A stretch of DNA of 64,000 nucleotides from Terriglobia bacterium (lineage in GTDB: Bacteria; Acidobacteriota; Terriglobia; 20CM-2-55-15). The DNA lies in assembly GCA_965218585.1 (NCBI GenBank), contig CBDCLE010000026.1, forward strand, positions 160,001-224,000, in the 5' to 3' direction. Shown here one piece after another: positions 27,786-42,297 of the stretch (positions are counted from its first letter, which is position 1; every line of letters begins with the position of its first letter). The notes under the pieces are model-generated. The model searched no databases. It had not been told where the DNA came from and was given only the letters and a program-made list of their open reading frames with translations. A program made the translations under genes and the position numbers.

Positions 27786-28139
27786 GGGGGCGCACCGGTT
27801 TCGACGGATGCGATGATGCAGGAGATGCATACCGAGGTTCCACGATCCTCGTTAAACGCGTGGAAAACAATCAATTGCTGACACTCAGTTAGCATTGGCT
27901 GCTTAATAACCAGCCACGTCCTTGATTGATTCGCCTGTAGGTCGGTTAAAGGACGTCACTTTATGCGGGATAGTCCTTCGTTGCTGGCCCGGCGGCGAGG
28001 GATGAAACTTAACGGGCTGGTGTTTCGGCCGGGTTGCAGGTTCCTTCAGGCCGGAGCATGAGACAAACTGGAACCTGACAAGTATGTAGACTCTCTTGTT
28101 GAACGTTTTCGGACGCGGGTTCGATTCCCGCCGCCTCCA
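27786..28139 (+). ncRNA. ssrA: tmRNA; tag ORF 27877-27906 encodes (A)ADTQLALAA
   Basis: 5' GGGGGCG..GGTTTCGAC; 3' T-arm GCGGGTTCGATTCCCGC and acceptor CGCCTCCA; tag ends in LAA-stop. Confidence 0.97.
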
Positions 28140-28292: not shown

Positions 28293-29468
28293 ATGGGAAC
28301 ACTGACGGCCGTTAAGGCAAAATCAATCACGAAACCGGGCATGCACGGCGACGGCGGCACGTTGTTTTTGCGCGTCGCGCCCGGCGGATCGAAGAGTTGG
28401 GTGCAGCGACTGACGATTGACGACAAGCGCTACGACATCGGCCTGGGAGGTTTTCCGCTGGTGAGCCTAGCCGAGGCGCGGGAGGCGGCCTTCCAAAATC
28501 GCAAGCTCGCGCGAGCCGGTGGAAATCCTCTCGCCGAGAAACGCAAGGCGACGGTGCCGACGTTTCGACAGGCCACTCAAGAAACCTATGAGGCGCTCAA
28601 GCCGCGCTGGCGTAATGACCACCATACCGTTTCCTGGATACAAACACTTCAACGTCACGCCTTCCCAGTCTTGGGAGATATGCCTGTTGACCGGATCGGC
28701 CGTGAGGATGTGCTGCGCGTCCTGACGCCGATCTGGGGCACGCGCATGGAAACCGCTCGCCGCGTTCGTCAGCGTATCCGAACCGTCTTGCGGTGGTGCG
28801 AGGCTCATGGCTATATCGACCGCAACGTGGCCGGTGACGCGATCAGCGGTGCACTACCCACTATGCCTGCTGTTAAGAGGCATTATCAGGCGCTCCCCTA
28901 TCGGGAGGTCCGGACGGCGCTCGAAAAAGTGGAAGCGTCCGGGGCGTCCATGTCCGCAAAACTTTGCCTTCGGTTTTTGGTCCTGACGGCGGCGCGGTCC
29001 GGCGAGGCACGGTCCGCACGCTGGGACGAGATCTATATGGATCAAGCCGTGTGGACGGTCCCGGCAACGCGTATGAAGTCCCAGCGAGAGCATCGAGTGC
29101 CGCTAAGCGATGCCGTCCTCGGCGTCCTCGAACAAGCACAGGTACTCAATGATGGTTCCGACCTGGTCTTCCCGTCGCCGCTGAGGCCGGGCAAGCCGCT
29201 GAGCAACATGACATTGACAAAGGTGCTGCGGGATCGCGGGATCGCAGACAAGGCGACCGTACACGGTTTCAGATCGAGCTTTAGGGATTGGTGCGCCGAG
29301 ACGGGCAAGCCGCGTGAGATCTCCGAGGCTGCTCTGGCGCACGTTGTCGGCGGTGTCGAGGGGGCTTACTTCCGTTCGGATTTGTTCGCCAAGCGCCGCC
29401 GACTGATGGGCCAGTGGGCCGCATTCCTGACCGGTGCCAGTACGGACATAGTGAGGCTCCATGGATAA
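28293..29468 (+). CDS. P4-like tyrosine integrase
   Basis: Arm-binding N-domain (HGDGGTLFLRV); catalytic AARSGE, HGFRSSF, LAH and AY. Confidence 0.95.
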   Translation: MGTLTAVKAKSITKPGMHGDGGTLFLRVAPGGSKSWVQRLTIDDKRYDIGLGGFPLVSLAEAREAAFQNRKLARAGGNPLAEKRKATVPTFRQATQETYEALKPRWRNDHHTVSWIQTLQRHAFPVLGDMPVDRIGREDVLRVLTPIWGTRMETARRVRQRIRTVLRWCEAHGYIDRNVAGDAISGALPTMPAVKRHYQALPYREVRTALEKVEASGASMSAKLCLRFLVLTAARSGEARSARWDEIYMDQAVWTVPATRMKSQREHRVPLSDAVLGVLEQAQVLNDGSDLVFPSPLRPGKPLSNMTLTKVLRDRGIADKATVHGFRSSFRDWCAETGKPREISEAALAHVVGGVEGAYFRSDLFAKRRRLMGQWAAFLTGASTDIVRLHG

Positions 29469-30583
29469 GGAACGCCACCCGTTCCCCGACTCTCTCGCCG
29501 ATTGGGCGGCCAAGATTTGACGGGAAGTTTGGTCCAGATCCCGAAAGTCCGAGCGAAGACTGGCGACCCGGTAACGTTCCGGTCGGCCCTGGTACCTCCC
29601 TGCATTCGGAAAACGAAATCGCTGGAAGCAGCGGTGCCGTGGTTGTATTTGAAAGGCGTCTCCAGCGGCGAGATGGGTGACGCTCTAAAAGTTCTTGTCG
29701 GACCCCAGGCGCAGGGCCTGTCGGCGAGCACGGTATCGCGGTTGAAACAGGTCTGGGCCGAGCAGTACCGCCGGGGATGCGAGGAGCGATTGGATGCCGA
29801 TCGCTGGGTCTATGTCTGGGCCGACGGTATCTACAGCGGACTGCGGGCCGAAGAAACCAAGTTGTGCGCACTGGTGGTGATCGGCGCGAATCAACGCGGA
29901 GAGAAACGTTTTCTGGCAATCGAAGACGGTGTCCGGGAATCGACACAGAGTTGGCGCGAGGTCTTGTTAAAGCTGAAGTCGCGTGGGATGAATATCCCGA
30001 AGTTGGCCATCGGAGACGGTGCGATGGGATTCTGGGCCGCACTGGAGGAAATCTATCCCGAGACACGTCACCAACGTTGCTGGATGCACAAGACCATGAA
30101 CGTACTGAACGGGCTCCCGAAGTCGGCCCAGGCGAAGGCGAAACAGGCTTTGCACGCGATCTGGCGGGCTCAGACACAGGCAGACGCCGAGAAGGCATTC
30201 GATCTGTTCATTGAAACCTATGAGCCGAAGTATCCGAAAGCCACTCGCTGCCTCCAGAAAGACAAAGAAGAACTGCTGGCCTTCTTCAACTTCCCGGCCA
30301 AGCACTGGCAGAGCATCCGAACGACCAATCCCATTGAGTCGACTTTTGCTACCATTCGCCACCGAACCAAGCGATCCAGGGGTTGCCTGACGCGGGTTGG
30401 CATGCTGCACATGATGTTCAAACTGGGACAGTGCGCTCAGAAGAACTGGCGACGATTACGAGGATTCGATGATCTGCCCAAGGTGATTACTGGAGTGAAA
30501 TTCAACGATGGAATCGAAGTGACCCACGTCGATCAGGCCGCCGCTTGAGTCAATCGGCAAAACACCACTTTTGACAATAACTC
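29469..30583 (+). mobile_element. IS256-family element, 5'-truncated (transposase ORF 29502-30548)
   Basis: WADG, IGDGAMG, QRCWMHK and RTTNPIES motifs; right end CACCACTTTTGACAATAACTC; N-terminus and left end not seen. Confidence 0.88.
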
Positions 30584-30924: not shown

Positions 30925-31720
30925 CCGACCCTCAGAAGCGAGTAGGCCACCAATTCTTTGTAGGTGAGCGTCCCGGTATTCACGATCCGATTGATGGTGT
31001 CGTGGAAGATTTGAGGATTGTTCCGATTGTTGAATCGCCAGTCCAGTTCTTCGACGTAGCGGTCTAGATGCTTCTTGCTTATCCGGTTGTTTCAGCACGG
31101 CACCATATGTAGTGTAGGCGTGTGGCACGACCTCGGTTTCCCAAGAATATGCGCGAGTTCCAACGGCAATTTGCTACCGAGGATGCGTGTCAAGACTACT
31201 TGGCGAGGTGTCGTTGGACGGACGGCTTCAAATGTCCCCGCTGCGGGTGCGGGCGGTCGTATCGGATTAGGAAACATCGACGGTGGCAATGCGTTGAGTG
31301 CCGATACCAGGTTTCGTTGACAGCCGGCACGATTCTCCACAACACAAGAACGCCACTGACGGTGTGGTTCTGGGCAGCCTATCTGATGGTCACTGATAAG
31401 CGGGGGATTTCGGCGCTCCTGCTCCAACAGCAGCCGGGACTTCGTCGGTACGAAACCGCGTGGATGCTGTTGCACAAGCTGAGACGCGCGATGGTGAACG
31501 CCACGCGTAAGCGGTTGCATGGCGAGGTGGAAATTGACGATACCTGGATCGGCGGGTCCCAATCCGGCCTTCGGGGGAGTCGTCAGCTCAAAGGGCGAAA
31601 GGCGGCCATCGGGTTGGTAGCTGTTGAAAGGAGAGGCCGCATCTCGGGTCGGATCCGACAATGGAACGCTTGAACAGCGACCAGACGCCCTCGATGCCGT
31701 TAGTATGGACATCACGCAAG
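30925..31720 (-). pseudogene. IS1595-family transposase C-terminal remnant, interrupted
   Basis: VHTNGIEGVWSLFKRSIVGS (~31715-31655) resumes as RISKKHLDRYVEELDWRFNNR (from ~31085 down). Confidence 0.8.
31083..31673 (+). pseudogene. Second IS1595-family element, 3'-truncated
   Basis: Zn ribbon CPRCG..CVEC; TAGTILH; YETAWMLLHKLR; GEVEIDD; ORF 31122-31673. Confidence 0.85.
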
Positions 31721-31771: not shown

Positions 31772-33121
31772 CTATCCGGTGTAGCTATTACGAGGTCTAA
31801 GGGAGGGTTTCCCCGCATGGCGAATGCCCCGACACTCCACCTTGGTCAATGGTGCAACCTTACGGTCAGTCAACAGTGAGAGTATTCCGACCTCACTAAT
31901 GGGACACTCGCAACCGGAGGTGATGGCGATAACGCGGGAGATTGCGACTGTTGCCGCGAGGGCGCTCACATAGGGAGCGGCAACGCTGGCTCCGCCGATG
32001 GCGGCCGTCCCGCAGGGCCCGATCTCCGCTTCAAGATGCCGGTAGGCCTCACCACATGGAACGTCTCCTCCATCGGGTTTGTCCGTTTGCCCGGCAAAGT
32101 GCGTGTCGATCCGGCGAACGCGGTCGAACACTGTAACGCGATACTTATCGAAATCCGAAACGGTTCGCCCAAGTCCTGCATCAACGATCCCGTCGAAGCC
32201 GACTTCGGCCATAAGGCTACGTGCCCCGACCTTGTCGACGCCCGAGAGCGCGAGACGTGGATCATCAATGTATAGCTGGTCGCCCCCGAGAAGATAGCGA
32301 TCGATCCTCCTGACGTCGAAGCCTTTTTCCAACGCCCAGCACTCAGCAACTTTCGTCTTCAGATCCCCGAAGGTCTCTCCCTTGACCAAAACCGACGTGG
32401 CCCAATTCTCTTCGGTAATCGTGTCGCGGTCCTGAAGAATGAGGGCGACGCCGGTGGGGTCCAGATAGGGCAGCGCCGCGAGCGCCCAAAGAAACGCTTG
32501 TCCCAAATTGCCTAACCCAACCAGCCAGAGCGCGCCGGGCAGGAATACCTCCGCGAAGCGCGGCGCCTTGTCGCCTGCCCTGACAGGCCACAGGTCGATC
32601 TCAGCTCGGAGGTCGCGGCAGCGTCCTCTCTCAGCTTCGAAGGCCGCACCGACCGCCAGCGCACCGGCGGCTATTCCGGGCAGCGGATTATCACCTTCGT
32701 CCGAGCAGCCTCCACCCGGCGTAGTGATGCCCGCTCGCCAGTCTTCCCACCACGGCGAAACAGACCAAGCTTCGATGCGCGCTCCGTTCGTGCCGACAAA
32801 GATCCTGCGCAACGAGCAGCCGTCGAATCCGAAGGCGCCAGCCAAGATGGCTGCCTCAGCGAGGCTTTCCGCAGCAAATGGAAGGGATGAATTGAAAGGC
32901 CCATCTATGGCCCCCGAGACCCGAACACCACCGACGAACGTTCTACTAGCTACCGACACAGCCGTCAGTATGGCGGCGTGAGCTGCGGGCGAAGTGGCAT
33001 CGGGCCCCACAACAATCTCTAGGGTGAGCGCCCGCAACTTGGCCTGTGCTTCATCAAAAGAAATGTTCTCGCTGTCGACAAGTATCTTCGCCAGACGCGT
33101 AATCTGTAAATCTAACGCCAT
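31772..33121 (-). CDS. E1-like (ThiF-family) ubiquitin-activating enzyme, BilD-like
   Basis: N-terminal inactive adenylation-like region; LVGLGNLG, QDRD..N, SGVDK..AR and DAGLG; candidate catalytic Cys in GPCG; start overlaps the JAB stop. Confidence 0.88.
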   Translation of the reverse strand: MALDLQITRLAKILVDSENISFDEAQAKLRALTLEIVVGPDATSPAAHAAILTAVSVASRTFVGGVRVSGAIDGPFNSSLPFAAESLAEAAILAGAFGFDGCSLRRIFVGTNGARIEAWSVSPWWEDWRAGITTPGGGCSDEGDNPLPGIAAGALAVGAAFEAERGRCRDLRAEIDLWPVRAGDKAPRFAEVFLPGALWLVGLGNLGQAFLWALAALPYLDPTGVALILQDRDTITEENWATSVLVKGETFGDLKTKVAECWALEKGFDVRRIDRYLLGGDQLYIDDPRLALSGVDKVGARSLMAEVGFDGIVDAGLGRTVSDFDKYRVTVFDRVRRIDTHFAGQTDKPDGGDVPCGEAYRHLEAEIGPCGTAAIGGASVAAPYVSALAATVAISRVIAITSGCECPISEVGILSLLTDRKVAPLTKVECRGIRHAGKPSLRPRNSYTG

Positions 33122-33633
33122 GGCCACCATCCGACGTGCAATGGCGACGGGCGGTCGAAGCTGCGGTCCCGCCATTGGCGCGAACCAACGTATTCGTACA
33201 CGCCGATGCGGCCCGGACTGGTTGACCGTGCTGCGAAATACGGGAGGATAACAGCGATGTGGCCGACTTCGGCCATGATCGGATTCGCACGGTCGGACTC
33301 GCTCTGTCGGAAATCACCCGGATGAACGTGGACATCGGCGACAACGGCCCGACCAGTTCTCCGACAATGCAGCCAGAGATCGCCAAGCCGACGGCCATCG
33401 ATTTCGACAATGCCGCTCCTCAGGGCACCCGGATCGATGTCGTCGTAAAAGACGAACTCCTCGATTCGACGTGTCTTGCACCTGGAGCCCAAAAGAAAAG
33501 CGCCGCTCTCGACCCGCCCGCCAGCACGTCGCCTAAGTTCTGCGACGCCAGTGCACCAAACCTCTGCGTCACAAAGAATTTCAGGCGGAGGCCCGAGGAC
33601 GCTGCGCGCGAGCGTTGCTATTAAGGACGCCAT
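33112..33633 (-). CDS. JAB/JAMM metallopeptidase (DUB), BilC-like
   Basis: ESGAFLLG...DVHVHPG...QSESD (E-HxH-S-D). Confidence 0.9.
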   Translation of the reverse strand: MASLIATLARSVLGPPPEILCDAEVWCTGVAELRRRAGGRVESGAFLLGSRCKTRRIEEFVFYDDIDPGALRSGIVEIDGRRLGDLWLHCRRTGRAVVADVHVHPGDFRQSESDRANPIMAEVGHIAVILPYFAARSTSPGRIGVYEYVGSRQWRDRSFDRPSPLHVGWWPWR

Positions 33634-34057
33634 GGAGATCCTCGAAAATGAAAGCAATCCGCCGCTCAGGGGTCCATGCAAGGTGTGGGAAAGTGACCGC
33701 GTTGCTATTGTGGCGGCCGGTCATCCGATCCCATGGGCGGTAGACGCTATCCTTTCCCCAGCATTGAAAAGTCTTCTCGACCCGAGCGCCTCCCTTTGGT
33801 CGCAGCTCACCTGCAAGGGGAGCGTTCCGCTCATGGTCCCAGATCCGAACCATCGGTGCCTGAGCCGGATAATTCGATAGCTCGGCCCGAAATCCGTATT
33901 CGCTGGTCGTGCTGTCCGGCTCAGTCGCGGAAATCACAAAGTCTAGTATGGGGAACTCATTCGAAATGATACGCCAACGCCCCGCATCGCAGCCGCTGAG
34001 AAAATCGCTTTCCTTGAGATCGGCGGCGATGCGGGCAATGCTGGGATCGGCGATCAC
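33581..34057 (-). CDS. E2-like conjugating protein, BilB-like
   Basis: GRWRII, NYPAQAP..WD, YRPWDR and AW motifs; between Ubl and JAB; GTGA overlap with the Ubl stop. Confidence 0.8.
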   Translation of the reverse strand: MIADPSIARIAADLKESDFLSGCDAGRWRIISNEFPILDFVISATEPDSTTSEYGFRAELSNYPAQAPMVRIWDHERNAPLAGELRPKGGARVEKTFQCWGKDSVYRPWDRMTGRHNSNAVTFPHLAWTPERRIAFIFEDLHGVLNSNARAQRPRASA

Positions 34058-34593
34058 AAGCAGCTCCCATTGGCAATATCGCCACGCACCAGATCAAGGG
34101 CAAGCTCACAGTCTTTTCCGGCCAAATGTCCGACATGCTCCGGCCCGTGCAGTTCCTCCTTGTGGCCACGCCGCGCTAGTTCGAACTCTGCTGCCATGCT
34201 CGAGTCGATATCGAACACCTCAATTGCCCAAGCGAGAACGTCCTTGACGGCCTCAAACCGCTTGAACGCACGTCTGTGTTCGCCCTCCTGATAGTACACA
34301 GTCACTGCTACCTCACCCGTGTGATGGACGTGGTGGCGGCGTTGATGAAAGTAGTTTGCGTCGACCACGATGGCAGGTGTCAGCGGTTCGGTCTCTCCCT
34401 CGCGGACTAGAATTAGCTCTTCGACATTGCAGCCGCGCTCGGCAGCAACTACTTCGAGGATCGCGGTCACGCTACTGCCCAACTCCAGTTCGACGAACCT
34501 CTCCTCGATGCAACCCAATTTCACCGGGATCGAGAACTTCCGCTCGGCCTGCGGCGAGTTCCCGCGGGCATCAGCGCCATTTTTTTCAGTCAT
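34054..34593 (-). CDS. Tandem ubiquitin-like protein, BilA/ISG15-like
   Basis: ~179 aa, fits two beta-grasp units; HVH..EVAVTV linker; ends ..DIANG-SCL; first gene of the E2-JAB-E1 operon. Confidence 0.8.
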   Translation of the reverse strand: MTEKNGADARGNSPQAERKFSIPVKLGCIEERFVELELGSSVTAILEVVAAERGCNVEELILVREGETEPLTPAIVVDANYFHQRRHHVHHTGEVAVTVYYQEGEHRRAFKRFEAVKDVLAWAIEVFDIDSSMAAEFELARRGHKEELHGPEHVGHLAGKDCELALDLVRGDIANGSCL

Positions 34594-34661
34594 TTCCACA
34601 ATCTCCAGCAGTATTTTTGATCACCAGCGGTGCGGACCTTCCCCACCGACAGCGCCTCTGA

Positions 34662-34690
34662 AGAGTAGCAACTTCGAAAATATGTGTCAA
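34662..34690 (-). promoter_or_regulatory. Sigma70-type promoter of the Ubl operon
   Basis: TTGACA (34690-34685), 17-nt spacer, extended TGn-TACTCT (34667-34662). Confidence 0.65.
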
Positions 34691-34771
34691 CACCACACAC
34701 GTAAAAGTATGTATAAGTTTGTGAAAAACACATTAATTAGACTTGACGCACACCTAGGAAAGGGGCAGTCT

Positions 34772-35149
34772 ATGAGCGTGTCGGATATGGAGCTTTATCG
34801 TCGCCTCGGGCGGGCAGTTGCCAAGCGACGCGCAGAACTCGGTTTCACCCAAGACGACGTTGCAAAAAGGCTAGGCCTTTCCAGAGCCTCAGTCGCCAAT
34901 CTCGAAAACGGCCGTCAGCGCATCATGGTGCATCAGCTTTTCGCGCTAGCGAACACACTGAACCTCAAAACGATTCTGGATCTAGTACCCAAGACCTGGG
35001 CACCTCCGGGTCCTTTACCGGAGATCAAGGTGAGCGGTTCGGCCCTAAGCCCGCAGCAGCAATCGGCGGTCGAAAACCTGCTTGCCACAGCCTTAACTGA
35101 AGATCGTCTGAGAAACATTCGTCGTGAATCCGTACGCCCAAAGGGATAA
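34772..35149 (+). CDS. XRE-family HTH regulator (CapH-like)
   Basis: TQDDVAKRLGLSRASVANLENGRQR; divergent from the Ubl operon. Confidence 0.88.
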   Translation: MSVSDMELYRRLGRAVAKRRAELGFTQDDVAKRLGLSRASVANLENGRQRIMVHQLFALANTLNLKTILDLVPKTWAPPGPLPEIKVSGSALSPQQQSAVENLLATALTEDRLRNIRRESVRPKG

Positions 35150-35654
35150 AGCTCGGCGAGCAGCACAGTCCCTGCTTAGCCACCATCGCGTAAGAGCGGC
35201 GCCTGTCCATGTCGAGCGCATAGCCAAGTCCCTTGGTGTGCGCGTCGAGTACGCTCCACTCGACAGTGAACTCTCCGGACTCGCACATATTCGGGATGGC
35301 GTTCCGATCGTAGGCATCAACACGCTGCACGCCCCCAATCGGCAGCGCTTTACGCTCGCCCACGAATTGGGCCACGTTCAGCTTCACCGCCATGAGATTG
35401 AGCACGCCGTACATGTTGATCGCGGTTCGCTACGGCGTGACGCCCTTGCAGCTGAGGGCGTGGACCCTATTGAAATCGAAGCAAACACCTTTGCGGCCGA
35501 ATTGCTCATGCCGACGGACCTCTTAACAACGGCACTCGAAAGACGTTCCGTTGATCTTGAAGATGACAAAGCTGTAACGGCGCTGGCCAAGCGCTTTAGG
35601 GTAAGCGAAGCCGCCATGCGCTATCGGCTGAACTCGCTCGGAGAATCGGAGTGA
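35124..35654 (+). CDS. ImmA/IrrE-family Zn metallopeptidase (CapP-like)
   Basis: RQRFTLAHELGH, EIEANTFAAELLMP and FRVSEAAMRYRL motifs. Confidence 0.92.
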   Translation: MNPYAQRDKARRAAQSLLSHHRVRAAPVHVERIAKSLGVRVEYAPLDSELSGLAHIRDGVPIVGINTLHAPNRQRFTLAHELGHVQLHRHEIEHAVHVDRGSLRRDALAAEGVDPIEIEANTFAAELLMPTDLLTTALERRSVDLEDDKAVTALAKRFRVSEAAMRYRLNSLGESE

Positions 35655-37115
35655 GTTTCGTCATCTACGACGTTGAGACCACAGGGCTCACAAGAGGATT
35701 CGATCAAATCGTTGAGTTTGGGGCTATCCGCACAGATTCAGCGCTGAAGTTAACGGACCACTTTCAGATCCGCTGTCGCCTCATGCCTCATGTCATCCCT
35801 TCGCCGAGGGCGCTGTACATTACGGGGCTTCGAATAGAGCAGCTCCTCGATGCATCTCTACCCTCGCACTATGCGATGGTCACAGAGATCCAACGAATCC
35901 TCGACTCATGGTGCCCAGCCCTATTCCTGGGATTTAACTCCTTGTCATTCGATGAGGAATTTTTACGCCGAGCCTTCTATCAGTGTCTTCACCGCCCGTT
36001 CTTGACGAACACTCGGGGAAGCGCTAGAGCCGACGTGCTTAATCTGTGCCGCATGACGGTAGCTCTCAGGCCCCGACGTGATGAAGGCGGCGACCGACGA
36101 GAATGGTCACACAATCTTCAAGCTCAAGGCGCTTGCTGAGACCAACGGCATTGCAGTGCCCTTGTCGCATAGCGCTATGGCGGACGCATCGACAACGCTT
36201 GCGCTTTGCCAAATCATCAGAAGTGGTGCACCTGAAGTCTGGTCACAGTTTCTGAGATTCAGCCAGAAAGCGACTGTCGAGTCTTTCATGAGCGAAGAAG
36301 ACGCTTTTTTGGTATCGGAGACTGTCGGCAATCATCATCGTATCCGCCTCGTAACCCCGATCGGCACACACAGCGAACGAGCGACACGTTACTACTGCCT
36401 TGACCTTGCCACCAATCTTGATGAGCTCCGGGAGATGTCAGATGGGGAACTGATCTGCCTATGTAAGAGCGCCTCACGGCCAATCGTGACAGTTCGCACG
36501 AACGCAGCGCCGACGCTATGGCCGCTCTATGATGCGACTCAAGAACATGTCGCTCCATTCGAGGACGAAACCCAGGTCTTGATGCGTGTCGCACAGATCC
36601 GAACAGCTGGGCCGTTCTTGGAACGGCTTCGAAGAGCGGCCGAGGCAGCCGAACCGTTTTATCCGCCACGAGCGCATGTGGAAGAGCAGCTGTACGCGGG
36701 TGGATTCCCGCTGCCGCAGGACGAAATTCTCATGCGGCGTTTTCATGCAGCCCCTTGGGAACAACGCGCTACGCTGGCGCGCCAACTCAGTGACGCTAGA
36801 TACCATCACCTAGCTCTACGACTCATCTATCTTGAACGGCCTGACTTGCTTGCAATTGAGCGCCGATACGCTGCAGACGACGAGGTGCGCAAACGCCTCA
36901 TGGCTGCTACCGACGCCAACGTGCCTTGGCGCTCAATTCCAGCGGCCCAGCGAGACATGAAAGCTCTCCTAGAATCACGGCTCGAAGGCGATGATTTGGC
37001 GAATCAACTGCGGTACTTGGACTATTTGGAAGAACGCGCGGCCGCGCTTGAAATGCCAATCTCGGGAGCTGGACGCTCGTGCGTCTCTACGGATGTCTGC
37101 TTGACTCGTCAGTGA
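35651..37115 (+). CDS. Exonuclease I (SbcB)-like DEDDh 3'-5' exonuclease, one frameshift at 36071-36074
   Basis: YDVETTG, GFNSLSFD, FKL..LA..NGI..SHSAMAD and VEEQLYAGGF; deleting one C restores ALRPDVMK (~487 aa). Confidence 0.85.
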
Positions 37116-38776: not shown

Positions 38777-39449
38777 ATGAGTGAAAGAACCGAAACTCTG
38801 CTCAGAAGCGTCTTTACGGAGACCATTCAGTCTGCGCTCGTCGCCGCCATAAGCTCTGCTTACGACCTGAACATGGAACGCTATGCGCCCGAAGTTGGGG
38901 ACGACGCCATGTTGTTCGGCTTGATGAACTACAAGTCAAAAGTCCCACTTCTTAACGCGTCTGGGGGTCGATGCCTCCAAAGACTGGGTCACCGTCATCC
39001 GCCAGACGCCATCCTTTGAGTTCAAGATCGGGAACTACAAGCTGTCGGCCTACTGCGCAGGACACACTAGCACTGTCGAGCCCCGAAATGCGTTTCCCTA
39101 CAATAGAAACCGCGCAGCAAGGATAGTCGAAACGAATCGGAACCAGTTGTCGTTCCCCTTTGCTATCTCCGGCAAAGAAGCTCCTGATGTCGACGACTCG
39201 AAATGCCCTGAACTAGTACTCGCTGACATCGGGAATCCCCTAGAGGGCCTCCTCAAGGTTTTTCTCGCCGTTCCGATCGAAAAAGACGAGGATGGCCGGA
39301 TTACGCGTTGGGGAACGATTCTCGAGATTTGGAACAAGGCATCGCACGAGCGTCCACGGGTCGCTTCCGGCACGCCTTCCCCACCACCGGAGCCGATCAA
39401 GGAACCCGTCGTCACGTTGCGAACAAACACCGTGGAGCGAGAGCGTTGA
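38777..39449 (+). CDS. Putative toxin partner of the HTH-peptidase (frameshift at 38943-38945)
   Basis: Deleting one C joins 38777-39019 to the 39147-39449 frame (~223 aa); stop overlaps the next start. Confidence 0.65.
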
Positions 39450-40552
39450 AGCCACTCGATCTTTACACGGCAGCCCACATGTTCGAGGCAGACCAACTGC
39501 GGCTGGCACGGGAATACCGGGGGCTTCAAAGAAAGGAACTCGCAAAGTTGCTTGGCGTAACACCGAGCGCCGTCAGCCAATACGAGGCGGGTAGGATCAA
39601 GCCAACGCCGCAGATGATTTCCCGTATGAAGCTAGCGCTGCACTTTCCAGTTGGTTTCTTCGTCGAGCCTCCCTCGTCCAGCGTCGCCGTCGACCAGTGT
39701 CACTTTCGTAGTTTGCGGTCTTGCACGCAAACGCAACGCAGGAGAATGGCCGCGGCAGCCACCCTCGTGGGAGGGCTGGTTGCACATCTTGCTGTCAATG
39801 TCGATTTCCCTACGGAAAACCTACTCTTGTTAGTGTCAGATCCACCAGACAGTGACGAAGAGATCGAAGGGCTGGCAGTCGATGCACGGAAACACTGGGG
39901 CCTGGGTCTGGGTCCGATCACACACATCTCGAAACTCGTTGAAAGTCACGGCGTCGTAGTCAGCCGTACTTTCCACGATTGCGCACAAGTCGACGCGTTC
40001 TCGCTTTGGCACTCGGCGCGCCCCTTGATATTCCTGAATGCCGACAAGAATAGCGGGACACGAAGCCGCTATGATGTCGCTCACGAACTTGGGCATCTCG
40101 TTATGCATACCGACTGCCTTCCTGGCGACCAAAGACACGAGCAGCAAGCCCATCGGTTCGCAGGCGCATTTCTACTACCGCGAGAAACCTTTGGTCGTGA
40201 ATGTCCGAGGCGTTTAATCTGGCCGCATTTGCTGGAACTCAAAGAACGATGGGGCGTTTCCCTGTCAGCTATCGCGCATCGCGCCTTCGATATCGGACTC
40301 TTCTCCGCTAGCGCATACCGACGGGCCAACGTTCAGTTGTCCCAACGCGGCTGGCGGGATAAGGAGCCTCAGGAGCCGTTGCCGGAGGAGCCAACGCTCC
40401 TGCGCCGCGCCCTTTCTCTGTTGGAAACAACCGGTAAGACCCTTGCCAGCATTGCCAGCGAGCTGAACATGACCCAGCACGACATCGAACTACTTGTCGG
40501 CGGTCCATTTCAACCACAGAAGGATCGGCCGAGTCTCTCTTTCGGCGAATGA
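39446..40552 (+). CDS. XRE-HTH + ImmA/IrrE Zn-peptidase fusion (RmrA-like antitoxin)
   Basis: LRLAREYRGL..SAVSQYEAG HTH; RYDVAHELGH; EQQAHRFAGAFLLP. Confidence 0.9.
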   Translation: MKPLDLYTAAHMFEADQLRLAREYRGLQRKELAKLLGVTPSAVSQYEAGRIKPTPQMISRMKLALHFPVGFFVEPPSSSVAVDQCHFRSLRSCTQTQRRRMAAAATLVGGLVAHLAVNVDFPTENLLLLVSDPPDSDEEIEGLAVDARKHWGLGLGPITHISKLVESHGVVVSRTFHDCAQVDAFSLWHSARPLIFLNADKNSGTRSRYDVAHELGHLVMHTDCLPGDQRHEQQAHRFAGAFLLPRETFGRECPRRLIWPHLLELKERWGVSLSAIAHRAFDIGLFSASAYRRANVQLSQRGWRDKEPQEPLPEEPTLLRRALSLLETTGKTLASIASELNMTQHDIELLVGGPFQPQKDRPSLSFGE

Positions 40553-40560
40553 GGGCCTAG

Positions 40561-42297
40561 CCCGCATATTTCACCAATAGGACCAGAAAAGGCCGCCCTG
40601 TCTGGCATAAAGCGTTTTGGAATAAACGTTTAACAAGCCAAACGGAGACGGCCCTTATGAGAACAGAGTGTAACCAAGTCACGTTCGAATTTCACGGACT
40701 ACTTCATCGAAAAGTGAAGGCGCGTTTTGACGGCGGAAAGATCACCTCCGACGCTGGGGTTCTGCTGTTGCGGGAAGTGGAAAAGCGAACCGGGTTGATC
40801 GACGGACTGGCCCAGTGTTTTACCGATCACCGGACCAGAGGTTGATCGAACACACGGTAAAGGAATTGTTGGGGCAGCGTGTCTATGGGCTCTGTTTGGG
40901 ATATGAAGACCTGAACGATCACGACCAGCTGCGGACCGATCCGATGCTGGCCGTGGCAGTGGAGAAGGCCGATCCTTTGGGAGAGAGCCGACGCCAGGCC
41001 GGGGACCGGGGAAAGGCGCTGGCGGGCAAGTGTACGCTCAACCGGCTGGAGCTGAGAGGGGCTGAGGCCGATGGCCAGGAGCGGTACAAGAAGATCGTCA
41101 TGGATGAGGACCGGATTGAGGGCTGGATGGTCGATGCGTTTCTAGCCGCCCACGACACGGCACCGGAAGAGATTGTTCTGGACATGGACGCGACCGATGA
41201 TCCGATCCATGGTCAACAGGAAGGCCGGTTCTTTCACGGCTACTACCGCCGCTATTGCTATCTGCCTTTGTACATCTTCTGTGGCGAACATCTGTTGTGC
41301 GCCCGTCTGCGCCGATCCAATATCGATGGTGCCGATGGAGCGGTGGATGAGTTGAAACGTATCATCGGCCAGATCCGTCACGGCTGGCCGGAAGTGAGGA
41401 TCATCATCCGGGCCGATTCCGGCTTTTGCCGGGATGAATTACTCCGTTGGTGTGAGGTCCATCAGCTCGATTACGTGATCGGGTTGGCCAAGAACGACCG
41501 TCTCAAGCGAGAGATTGCTCAAGAAATGACTCAGGCCGAAGCGGAGTTTAACACCACCGGAAAACCGGCGCGGGTGTTTAAGGATTTCCAGTACCGGACC
41601 CTGAAGAGCTGGAGCTGCACCCGACGCGGCGTTGCCAAGGCCGAGTTCCTGAACAAGGGTGCCAATCCTCGATTCGTGGTGACCTCATTACCGACAAAAC
41701 GCCTCGCCGCCCAAGCTCTCTATGAAGATTTCTACTGCGCTCGCGGTGACATGGAGAACCGCATCAAGGAACAACAACTGGATCTGTTTGCCGACCGCAC
41801 CAGCGCGGCGACGATGCGTGCCAATCAGCTCCGGCTGTATCTATCCTCAGCCGCTTACATGCTCATGCATGCACTGCGTCGTCTGGGGCTCAAGGATACC
41901 CCGCTGGCCCGCGCTCAATGCCAGACCATCCGCCTGAAGCTTCTCAAGATCGGCGCTCGCATCCGCCTGACGGTCCGCAACGTCTGGCTCTCGATGTCGG
42001 AGGCCTATCCCTACGCCGAAGTCTTTGCGACCATCCTTCGCAACCTGCAGTCGATTCCTCTGCGGTGCTGACACAGGACCCCGATCCACGGCTCCAAAAT
42101 AGACTTGTTTCTTTCTCCGACGGAGAGCTCTGCCTGACTACCTTATCCAGGCCTCCTTCAAACCCCAGAAACAAACCCACTCATGGCCAGCGACACCCTG
42201 ATTGTCCCCATCCGTGCCTTACCGGAACCCAGACTCTCCCAACGCCCACTCTTCCGCACGAAAACGCGCTTCATTCACGATTGGTGAAATATGCGGG
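40561..42297 (+). mobile_element. IS1380-family element (transposase 40657-42071, frameshift at ~40832)
   Basis: Perfect 18-bp TIRs CCCGCATATTTCACCAAT, CTAG on both sides; TSDAG, LDMDAT, RADSGF and RGDMENRIKE motifs. Confidence 0.95.

Follow-up and report, generated by a model that had tools for sequence, protein, structure and literature searches.

Exonuclease I as the third gene of a portable HTH-M78 regulator cassette beside Bil and other bacterial defence operons

Introduction

CapH/CapP-type switches, which pair an XRE-family helix-turn-helix (HTH) repressor with an M78 zinc peptidase, have so far been described as two-protein modules. According to the available part of a recent preprint, E. 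coli CapP (288 aa) comprises a peptidase domain (residues 1–141), an HTH domain (142–182) and a GAF domain (182–288); single-stranded DNA (ssDNA) activates both CapP and IrrE, and in CapP it occupies a groove formed by the peptidase and GAF domains, pushing aside a cysteine switch loop, which is not found in every CapP homolog (10.64898/2026.05.16.725639). A link between CapH/CapP and Bil is also known, reported for 25 of 162 Type II Bil operons in the available part of another paper (10.1101/2023.09.26.559546). Here we analyze a 64,000-nt stretch of DNA from a Terriglobia bacterium (the window: contig CBDCLE010000026.1, positions 160,001 to 224,000, forward strand, assembly GCA_965218585.1), in which a repressor-peptidase pair of this type, divergent from a BilABCD operon, is followed in its own operon by a third gene, for a 3'-5' exonuclease of the exonuclease I (ExoI)/SbcB family.

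Two sets of reports bear on what such an exonuclease might do. For the defence-associated reverse transcriptase (DRT) systems DRT9 and DRT10, the available parts of the two reports state that host SbcB/ExoI keeps the ssDNA products below a toxic or activating level, and that phage 3'-end-binding proteins or proteins resembling single-stranded-DNA-binding protein (SSB) relieve this control (10.1101/2025.03.24.645077; 10.64898/2026.04.29.721553). The exonuclease Exo/Cap18 is described, in what is available of that study, as cleaving the 2'-5'-linked linear intermediate of cyclic GMP-AMP (cGAMP) synthesis (10.1101/2025.03.04.641389). Literature searches for CapH and CapP with an exonuclease, or for COG2856 with an exonuclease, found nothing on the cassette studied here. 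The word "exonuclease" is absent from the main texts of 10.1101/2023.09.26.559546, 10.1101/2022.04.27.489752 and 10.64898/2026.05.16.725639, although their supplementary tables might list the gene, and a paper on UG/Abi mentions neither exonuclease, DEDD nor DnaQ. A preliminary description of the locus had taken ExoI in this setting to be undescribed, and we too found no paper that describes it.

We report that HTH-M78-ExoI is a portable regulator cassette, its genes closely packed in one operon that faces away from a defence operon, here BilABCD. By analogy with the systems above, it may work as a three-gene switch in which ExoI would clear 3'-ended ssDNA, set the firing threshold and reset the response, a reading to which we give about an even chance.

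Results

A three-gene operon facing a Bil operon

The first gene (34772–35149, plus strand) encodes a CapH-like XRE-family HTH repressor (Pfam HTH_3, 3e-12; PADLOC capH, 5.4e-9); by direct reading of the sequence, its frame opens with ATG at 34772 and closes with TAA at 35149. The second (35124–35654, plus strand), read likewise from a GTG at 35124 to a TGA ending at 35654, encodes a 176-aa CapP/ImmA-like M78 zinc peptidase (Pfam Peptidase_M78, 7.3e-29; PADLOC capP, 6.4e-35). The ExoI gene (35651–37115, plus strand; Pfam RNase_T and Exonuc_X-T_C), which appears as two open reading frames (ORFs) at 35651–36139 and 36078–37115, starts within the peptidase stop: the letters GTGA at 35651–35654 hold both the ExoI GTG start (35651–35653) and the peptidase TGA (35652–35654). 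All three genes lie head to tail on the plus strand, and diverge across a 172-nt gap from four minus-strand genes. The preliminary description had seen HTH, peptidase and ExoI as one coupled unit facing away from genes for a ubiquitin-like protein (Ubl), an E2, a JAB peptidase and an E1, and with the GTGA overlap read again in the sequence this arrangement holds.

Recurrence of the triplet beside varied cargo

In a first scan we searched one genome per species with an ExoI profile, obtaining 48 ExoI loci whose neighbouring genes were located by tblastn with the window proteins. An M78 gene lay directly upstream of ExoI in 36 of the 48, accompanied by the HTH gene in 35; two of the 12 loci without M78 (L032 and L048) begin at a contig end. 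In the 36 triplet loci the M78 stop and the ExoI start overlapped by 4 nt in 12 cases, were separated by 7–19 nt in 23 and were in frame in one (L004), and in most loci the HTH and M78 genes overlapped by 4 nt. The in-frame case (L004, 7473–9434), from an alphaproteobacterial metagenome-assembled genome (MAG), places M78 and ExoI in a single 653-aa protein (P0121), which is either a natural fusion or the product of an assembly indel. Among proteins longer than 604 aa no other fused M78-ExoI was found, and as P0121 belongs to the MAG of L004, fusion of the two does not recur.

A second scan, with the peptidase profile, yielded 80 loci, 79 of them new. The cassette is present in at least 60 distinct loci, from Proteobacteria, Binatia, Acidobacteriota, Gemmatimonadota and others.

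All seven genes were found in nine of the 48 ExoI loci, spread over several classes and phyla, Alpha- and Gammaproteobacteria among them: a Binatia MAG, an alphaproteobacterial MAG, Ca. Rariloculus, a 'Deltaproteobacteria' MAG, Methylocystaceae, Rhizobium, Acidithiobacillus, Rhizomicrobium and Mesorhizobium. This is the recurrence of capH-capP-exoI beside Bil operons in unrelated genomes for which the preliminary description had suggested looking. Finding exactly these seven genes nine times would suit the idea, put forward in the same description, of a seven-gene system, an undescribed Bil variant with ExoI as its Bil-specific seventh component. Yet 27 of the 36 triplet loci of scan 1 carry other cargo, and in scan 2 Bil cargo was seen only in the duplicate loci L050 and L051. 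Typing by Pfam scans and BLAST seeding placed at least eight other kinds of defence operon beside HTH-M78-ExoI. Three are types of cyclic-oligonucleotide-based antiphage signalling system (CBASS): type III with SMODS, HORMA, AAA, and SAVED or DUF6602; type II with patatin, a DncV-like protein and E2-ThiF; and type I with SMODS-AGS_C and SLATT or patatin. The others are a Cap2-like E2-E1-JAB protein, Bub/6e operons (Multi_ubiq, ThiF, DUF6527), a second Bil-like type (Prok-JAB, E1-N/ThiF), TIR with SIR2 (L069, 1997–4443) and a C5 cytosine methylase with an Eco29kI-like endonuclease (L071, 2693–4700), the last two divergent from the triplet. Cargo also changes to Bub, the second Bil-like type or an insertion sequence (IS) element inside the Bil-linked ExoI clade (see below). 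With the triplet standing beside CBASS I–III, Bub/6e, Cap2-like, TIR/SIR2 and restriction-modification operons, we do not treat ExoI as a Bil component, and consider a Bil-specific role very improbable.

Two observations on individual loci are recorded here. It is unusual for a restriction-modification system to be governed by a damage-responsive repressor-peptidase switch, as would be the case in L071. Loci L009 (Methylocystaceae bin) and L051 (Opitutia bin) give identical identity values for all Bil and regulator genes, which points to a mis-binned contig or to one element shared by two MAGs from related samples.

ExoI is inherited with the peptidase

Of the 33 scan 2 loci with an M78 peptidase sharing at least 49.7% identity with that of the window, 30 have ExoI after M78, versus 2 of the 46 below that value. 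The three exceptions are L051, where the contig ends 74 nt past M78, and L058 and L077. The latter two, with M78 58% and 52% identical and no ExoI downstream, look like natural ExoI-less derivatives. M78 lengths were 170–183 aa with ExoI and 165–194 aa without it. By these sequence criteria the ExoI triplet marks one clade of short, GAF-less M78 peptidases. Pairwise distances of M78 and ExoI over 58 loci were strongly correlated (r = 0.85), a value matched by none of 999 permutations.

An ExoI tree was built from 71 rows. Excluded from it were the six copies under 400 aa as well as the duplicate loci L050, L054 and L064; L051 had no ExoI match at the threshold used and is absent. A branch with 97% support separates all 60 cassette ExoIs from eight copies in housekeeping contexts, which show conserved synteny with transporter, kinase/nucleotidyl-transferase and thioredoxin genes. 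L032 (at a contig edge), L038 and L041 group on the cassette side. This phylogeny against housekeeping SbcB, proposed earlier as a check, thus sets the cassette copies apart. Within the ExoI clade nearest the window, cargo varies among BilABCD, Bub, the second Bil-like type and an IS element; from this exchange we conclude that ExoI belongs to the regulator and not to Bil. The alignments and tree show a cassette that evolves as one unit, with changing cargo operons.

The third gene encodes an ExoI/SbcB-family enzyme

The family profile matched E. coli exonuclease I (1fxx) over residues 10–408 (E 3.4e-43), and the C-terminal part of the window ExoI matched Pfam Exonuc_X-T_C (8.7e-16), so that the SH3-like and C-terminal helical domains are represented. 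The protein modelled with AlphaFold was an intact homolog, P0017 from locus L002, with a predicted local distance difference test score (pLDDT) of 90.2. This model aligned with ExoI structures from Methylocaldum and from E. coli (1fxx, 4js4 for the latter) over ∼483 columns, with template modelling (TM) scores of 0.82 by query and 0.85 by target, whereas the single-domain DEDDh enzymes RNase T and TREX1 reached a TM of only about 0.3 on it. Residues D7, E9, D101, H173 and D178 were invariant in 36 of 36 sequences, as also in all 60 cassette and all eight housekeeping copies; conserved differences between the two groups are limited to F203, R372 and, partly, R390. With so few differing conserved residues and all catalytic residues kept, cassette ExoI looks like an ordinary enzyme. 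Homology and predicted fold identify it as a true ExoI/SbcB-family exonuclease, in agreement with the preliminary description, and its DEDDh residues and fold make it look active.

The PADLOC model RTasSbcB (DRT-associated SbcB) matches the window ExoI at 7.1e-96. We rejected this label as a sign of DRT association: housekeeping-context ExoIs match equally well or better (398 bits for L037), so the model is a generic ExoI model. A Pfam scan found no reverse transcriptase domain among 70 neighbouring ORFs.

Cassette ExoI is the only PF08411 match in the window's genome and in four of five other host genomes. Since no other ExoI-type gene is present there, the cassette would supply an activity that the host lacks.

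These properties bear on three other roles for the enzyme. One is that of an effector, a co-induced exonuclease that attacks phage ssDNA intermediates and adds to the defence. ExoI would indeed be induced along with the defence operon, and its fold predicts 3'-5' ssDNA nuclease activity. But the gene is always in the regulator operon and never in the cargo operon, and the partner systems are complete with effectors of their own (patatin, SAVED, SLATT, TIR, restriction endonuclease). Circular or SSB-coated DNA that offers no free 3' end is also no substrate for ExoI, a further count against this role, which we judge improbable.

Another possibility is that the cassette derives from a DdrO/IrrE-like damage regulon in which ExoI is simply a damage-induced repair enzyme, with no feedback, and that its divergent promoter is the point at which defence operons were acquired. 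The resemblance to the normal enzyme and the lack of another ExoI in most hosts fit such an origin, as does the placing of repair genes under IrrE/DdrO, according to the available part of 10.64898/2026.05.16.725639. Against it, the cassette is a resident of mobile defence islands, where cargo is constantly exchanged, and not of conserved chromosomal repair contexts, and the ExoIs that do have conserved synteny form the separate, housekeeping group. Degradation of ssDNA would, moreover, feed back on an ssDNA-sensing switch in any case. We hold a pure repair output to be unlikely.

The third role is trimming of a nucleotide signal, as by the CBASS DEDDh exonuclease Exo/Cap18. CBASS accounts for many of the cargo operons, ExoI is also of DEDDh type, and the available part of 10.1101/2025.03.04.641389 supplies a precedent. 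However, the same gene stands beside Bil, Bub, TIR/SIR2 and restriction-modification operons, where no such intermediate is produced; it belongs to the regulator operon and lies outside that of CBASS; and it has the full three-domain ExoI fold (TM 0.82) as opposed to the RNase T/TREX1 type (about 0.3). We therefore give trimming hardly any weight.

The split ExoI frame in the window

The ExoI frame of the window breaks at a run of four C (36071–36074, plus strand), which leaves the RNase_T part (35651–36139) and the Exonuc_X-T_C part (36078–37115) in different frames. In an alignment, 18 of 18 full-length homologs (about 467–494 aa) run uninterrupted through this site, reading ..ALRPDV.K.., and the window gives the same reading with one C fewer. 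We compared window positions 35500–36700 with Logan contigs of four public runs (X1–X4). All three contigs that span the run (X1, X2 and X4) have one base fewer at 36071, giving three C and an intact gene, at a depth of 3–4; in X3 two contigs end and begin at 36072/36073 and are uninformative on the run. X1 and X2 represent one sample, possibly the source sample of the window itself, and X4 a second study. Because the spanning contigs carry three C, and do so at low depth, we read the frameshift as probably an assembly error or a strain or minor variant; they speak against the real frameshift that had been considered earlier.

A short peptidase compared with canonical CapP

The window peptidase consists of a peptidase domain and a small helical part, with no GAF domain. 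It covers the PADLOC capP profile at positions 3–155 of 242 only, and its family profile aligns with residues 85–174 of the 291 in CapP structure 7t5t. A model of the peptidase (pLDDT 87.5) compared with 7t5t gave a TM of 0.66 by query length and 0.44 by target length; over CapP and IrrE together the values were about 0.6–0.66 by query and 0.44–0.46 by target. The zinc site is kept, with H80, E81 and H84 of the HExxH motif and E117 and E126 invariant in 32 sequences. No conserved cysteine was found in 12, nor in 32, aligned M78 sequences, so the switch cysteine of CapP is missing from them. At the position of the zinc-binding switch cysteine of Thauera CapP there is a nearly invariant histidine, H97 in the motif AVHVD, followed by a loop (102–111) of low model confidence. 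On this alignment, H97 may mark an auto-inhibitory switch in which histidine takes the place of cysteine.

The preliminary description had taken ssDNA as the CapP-activating signal. That stands for canonical CapP in the available part of the 2026 preprint (10.64898/2026.05.16.725639); for the GAF-less 176-aa peptidase, with both GAF domain and switch cysteine missing, activation by ssDNA is an assumption made by analogy.

The missing GAF domain invites the alternative that ExoI is a sensor subunit: it would bind the short peptidase and provide ssDNA binding in trans, and ssDNA-bound ExoI would activate repressor cleavage. Translational coupling of the M78 and ExoI genes and their strong co-evolution are also consistent with this. 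A prediction of the ExoI-M78 complex came out as 'weak support', with a score of 0.52 versus 0.31 for the best control, at least 93% contact agreement between runs and partner pLDDT of at least 77. The mark for this grade was reached by 58 of 80 solved complexes and by 2 of 110 mismatched pairs, counts that are rough as own alignments were used. At scores up to 0.60, those passing were only 7 of the 80 solved complexes and both of the mismatches, so that 0.52 falls in a range where passes are more often wrong than right. The sister-clade M78 peptidases, equally short, work without ExoI in 44 of 46 loci; cassette ExoI has nearly the same conserved residues as housekeeping ExoI; and the single fused M78-ExoI protein, from one MAG, is possibly an indel. 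On balance a sensor subunit appears a doubtful proposition.

The divergent control region

The control region between the divergent operons (34600–34771) was characterized by alignment of ten BilABCD-type intergenic regions, which have in common TGTCAAC, GTTTGTGA-N-AAACACA and CTTGAC. In the window the conserved boxes are TGTCAAC at 34685–34691, GTTTGTGAAAAACACA (TGTG-N5-CACA) at 34717–34732 and CTTGAC, resembling a -35 hexamer, at 34742–34747. Across all cargo types, 63 of 64 ExoI-type loci have TTGAC in the 70 nt that precede the HTH start, versus 5.6% of background windows. The strict operator regular expression GTTTG-N5-8-CAC matched 21 of 64 ExoI-type loci, versus 1 of 43 without ExoI and 0.7% of background windows, the motif being too degenerate for a regular expression. 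No inverted repeats were found in the 191-nt control region at seed 6. The cassette thus seems, from these conserved motifs, to carry its own promoter and a putative operator.

In most loci a -10-like hexamer, CAGTCT (TAGTTT in relatives), lies about 6–7 nt before the HTH start codon. Its position suggests a transcript that is leaderless or has a very short leader. With the hexamer so near (window 34766–34780), the HTH start is uncertain between ATG at 34772 and GTG at 34778.

The Bil operon and the surrounding island

The four minus-strand genes have the order bilA-bilB-bilC-bilD (Ubl, E2, JAB peptidase, E1), and PADLOC assigns all of them to BilABCD. They encode BilA, a ubiquitin-like protein (34054–34599; PADLOC 3.8e-36); BilB, E2-like, with a YRPWDR motif (33581–34057; PADLOC 8.9e-46, Pfam DUF7665 1.3e-22); BilC, a JAB-type peptidase of uncertain start (33112–33681; PADLOC 3.8e-58 over residues 25–177); and BilD, E1-like (31772–33175; PADLOC 1.7e-114 over residues 20–427). 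The E2 had been called atypical; given its PADLOC BilB match and Pfam DUF7665 domain, it is an ordinary BilB. The true start of BilD is probably 16–19 codons inside the 31772–33175 ORF, as judged from sequence comparison; in four loci there is an in-frame stop among the first codons of this ORF. Searches of PDB sequences with the E1 and E2 proteins returned only chance-level matches, and their identity came from PADLOC.

The Bil and regulator genes appear to form an island integrated at ssrA: the transfer-messenger RNA gene (27786–28139, plus strand; ARAGORN), the likely integration site, is directly followed by a tyrosine integrase gene at the island border (28293–29468, plus strand; Pfam Phage_integrase, Phage_int_M and Arm-DNA-bind_3). 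Between the integrase and bilD are a Mutator/IS256-family transposase (29502–30548) and an IS1595-type zinc-ribbon fragment (31122–31673), so the island is IS-ridden. Downstream of the cassette is a 414-aa fused HTH-M78 protein (39308–40552; PADLOC RmrA, 1.5e-100), and a DDE transposase (40815–42071) comes after it.

Discussion

A model in which ExoI clears the inducing signal would run as follows. The repressor would keep both divergent promoters shut until a DNA-damage or infection signal activates the peptidase and the repressor is cut; by analogy with CapP and IrrE, that signal would be 3'-ended ssDNA. Basal ExoI would hold stray ssDNA under the firing threshold, a role that would matter in hosts mostly lacking another ExoI. 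Upon firing, ExoI would be co-induced with new repressor and peptidase; it would remove the signal, and the repressor would reclose the system, producing a pulse. It is this co-induction with new repressor that would make ExoI a means of resetting the switch. We favor signal clearing because the hosts mostly have no other ExoI and because host SbcB is reported to keep the ssDNA of DRT9 and DRT10 from reaching the activating level.

Several findings weigh against it. The sister-clade short M78 peptidases (165–194 aa) regulate similar cargo without ExoI in 44 of 46 loci, so ExoI is dispensable for such switches in general. Shared host ancestry could partly lie behind the correlation of M78 and ExoI distances. 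Canonical CapP senses ssDNA by means of its GAF domain and switch cysteine, and the window peptidase has neither. ExoI is truncated, frameshifted or displaced by inserted genes in L014 (8001–8912), L040 (8001–8933), L073 (6523–9187) and L079 (6518–7899), where the exonuclease may sometimes be lost or the assembly may be in error; since it is broken or displaced in several loci as well as in the window assembly, its loss may be tolerated. The contigs supporting an intact window gene are shallow, and two of them may stem from the window's own sample.

ExoI might be a guarded node. Here a phage that protects its ssDNA or 3' ends, or that inhibits host ExoI, would block the cassette enzyme; ssDNA would build up and the peptidase would fire. 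SSB-like proteins or 3'-end binders, of the sort that set off DRT9 and DRT10, would be the triggers. We regard this as rather unlikely; if true, a phage counter-measure would become the induction signal for any plugged-in defence operon, in hosts lacking ExoI.

In a large clade, then, a switch known as a pair has ExoI as a fixed third gene. If ExoI tunes the ssDNA signal, this would be the first defence regulator to carry its own signal-clearing enzyme. That would explain how cassettes work after transfer into hosts without sbcB, and would link the transcriptional control of CBASS, Bil and Bub to the ExoI-dependent thresholds of DRT9 and DRT10.

The cassette can be set beside several known systems. 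In ImmR/ImmA and DdrO/IrrE an M78 peptidase cleaves an HTH repressor in response to damage, as proposed for the cassette, and the cassette M78 fold matches IrrE/PprI with a TM of 0.6 by query. The ImmA peptidase is similarly short. Those pairs, however, control mobile-element induction or repair regulons, and in the literature searched we found no exonuclease linked to them. E. coli ExoI has the same three-domain fold over its full length (TM 0.82/0.85) and the same DEDDh residues; by contrast, cassette ExoI is about 24% identical to it, resides in a mobile defence island and belongs to a clade apart from housekeeping ExoIs.

Exo/Cap18 is likewise a DEDDh exonuclease beside CBASS with a negative, threshold-setting role. 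As described in the available part of that study, it differs in lying inside the CBASS operon, acting on 2'-5' dinucleotides and being likened to RNase T and TREX1 (10.1101/2025.03.04.641389). Cassette ExoI, with ExoI architecture and a link to the regulator whatever the cargo, is set apart by that description of Cap18. For DRT9 and DRT10, again from the available parts of the reports cited above, the likeness is that ExoI removes ssDNA that would switch on immunity, as it would in the cassette. In those systems a chromosomal housekeeping enzyme acts on ssDNA synthesized by the reverse transcriptase that belongs to the system. In the cassette, the regulator brings along the exonuclease, and its ssDNA substrate would arise through damage or infection.

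The last of these systems is CapH/CapP itself (Lau et al. 2022, 10.1101/2022.04.27.489752; Calloji et al. 2026, 10.64898/2026.05.16.725639). It shares with the cassette an XRE HTH protein with an M78 peptidase, a promoter region held in common with a divergent defence operon and the same range of cargo (CBASS, 6a, 6e, Bil), and capH, capP and CapP 7t5t are the cassette's best PADLOC and PDB matches. Unlike CapP, at about 290 aa, the cassette peptidase has about 175 aa, no GAF domain and a histidine at the switch-cysteine position; and unlike the CapH/CapP pair, its operon has a third gene, ExoI.

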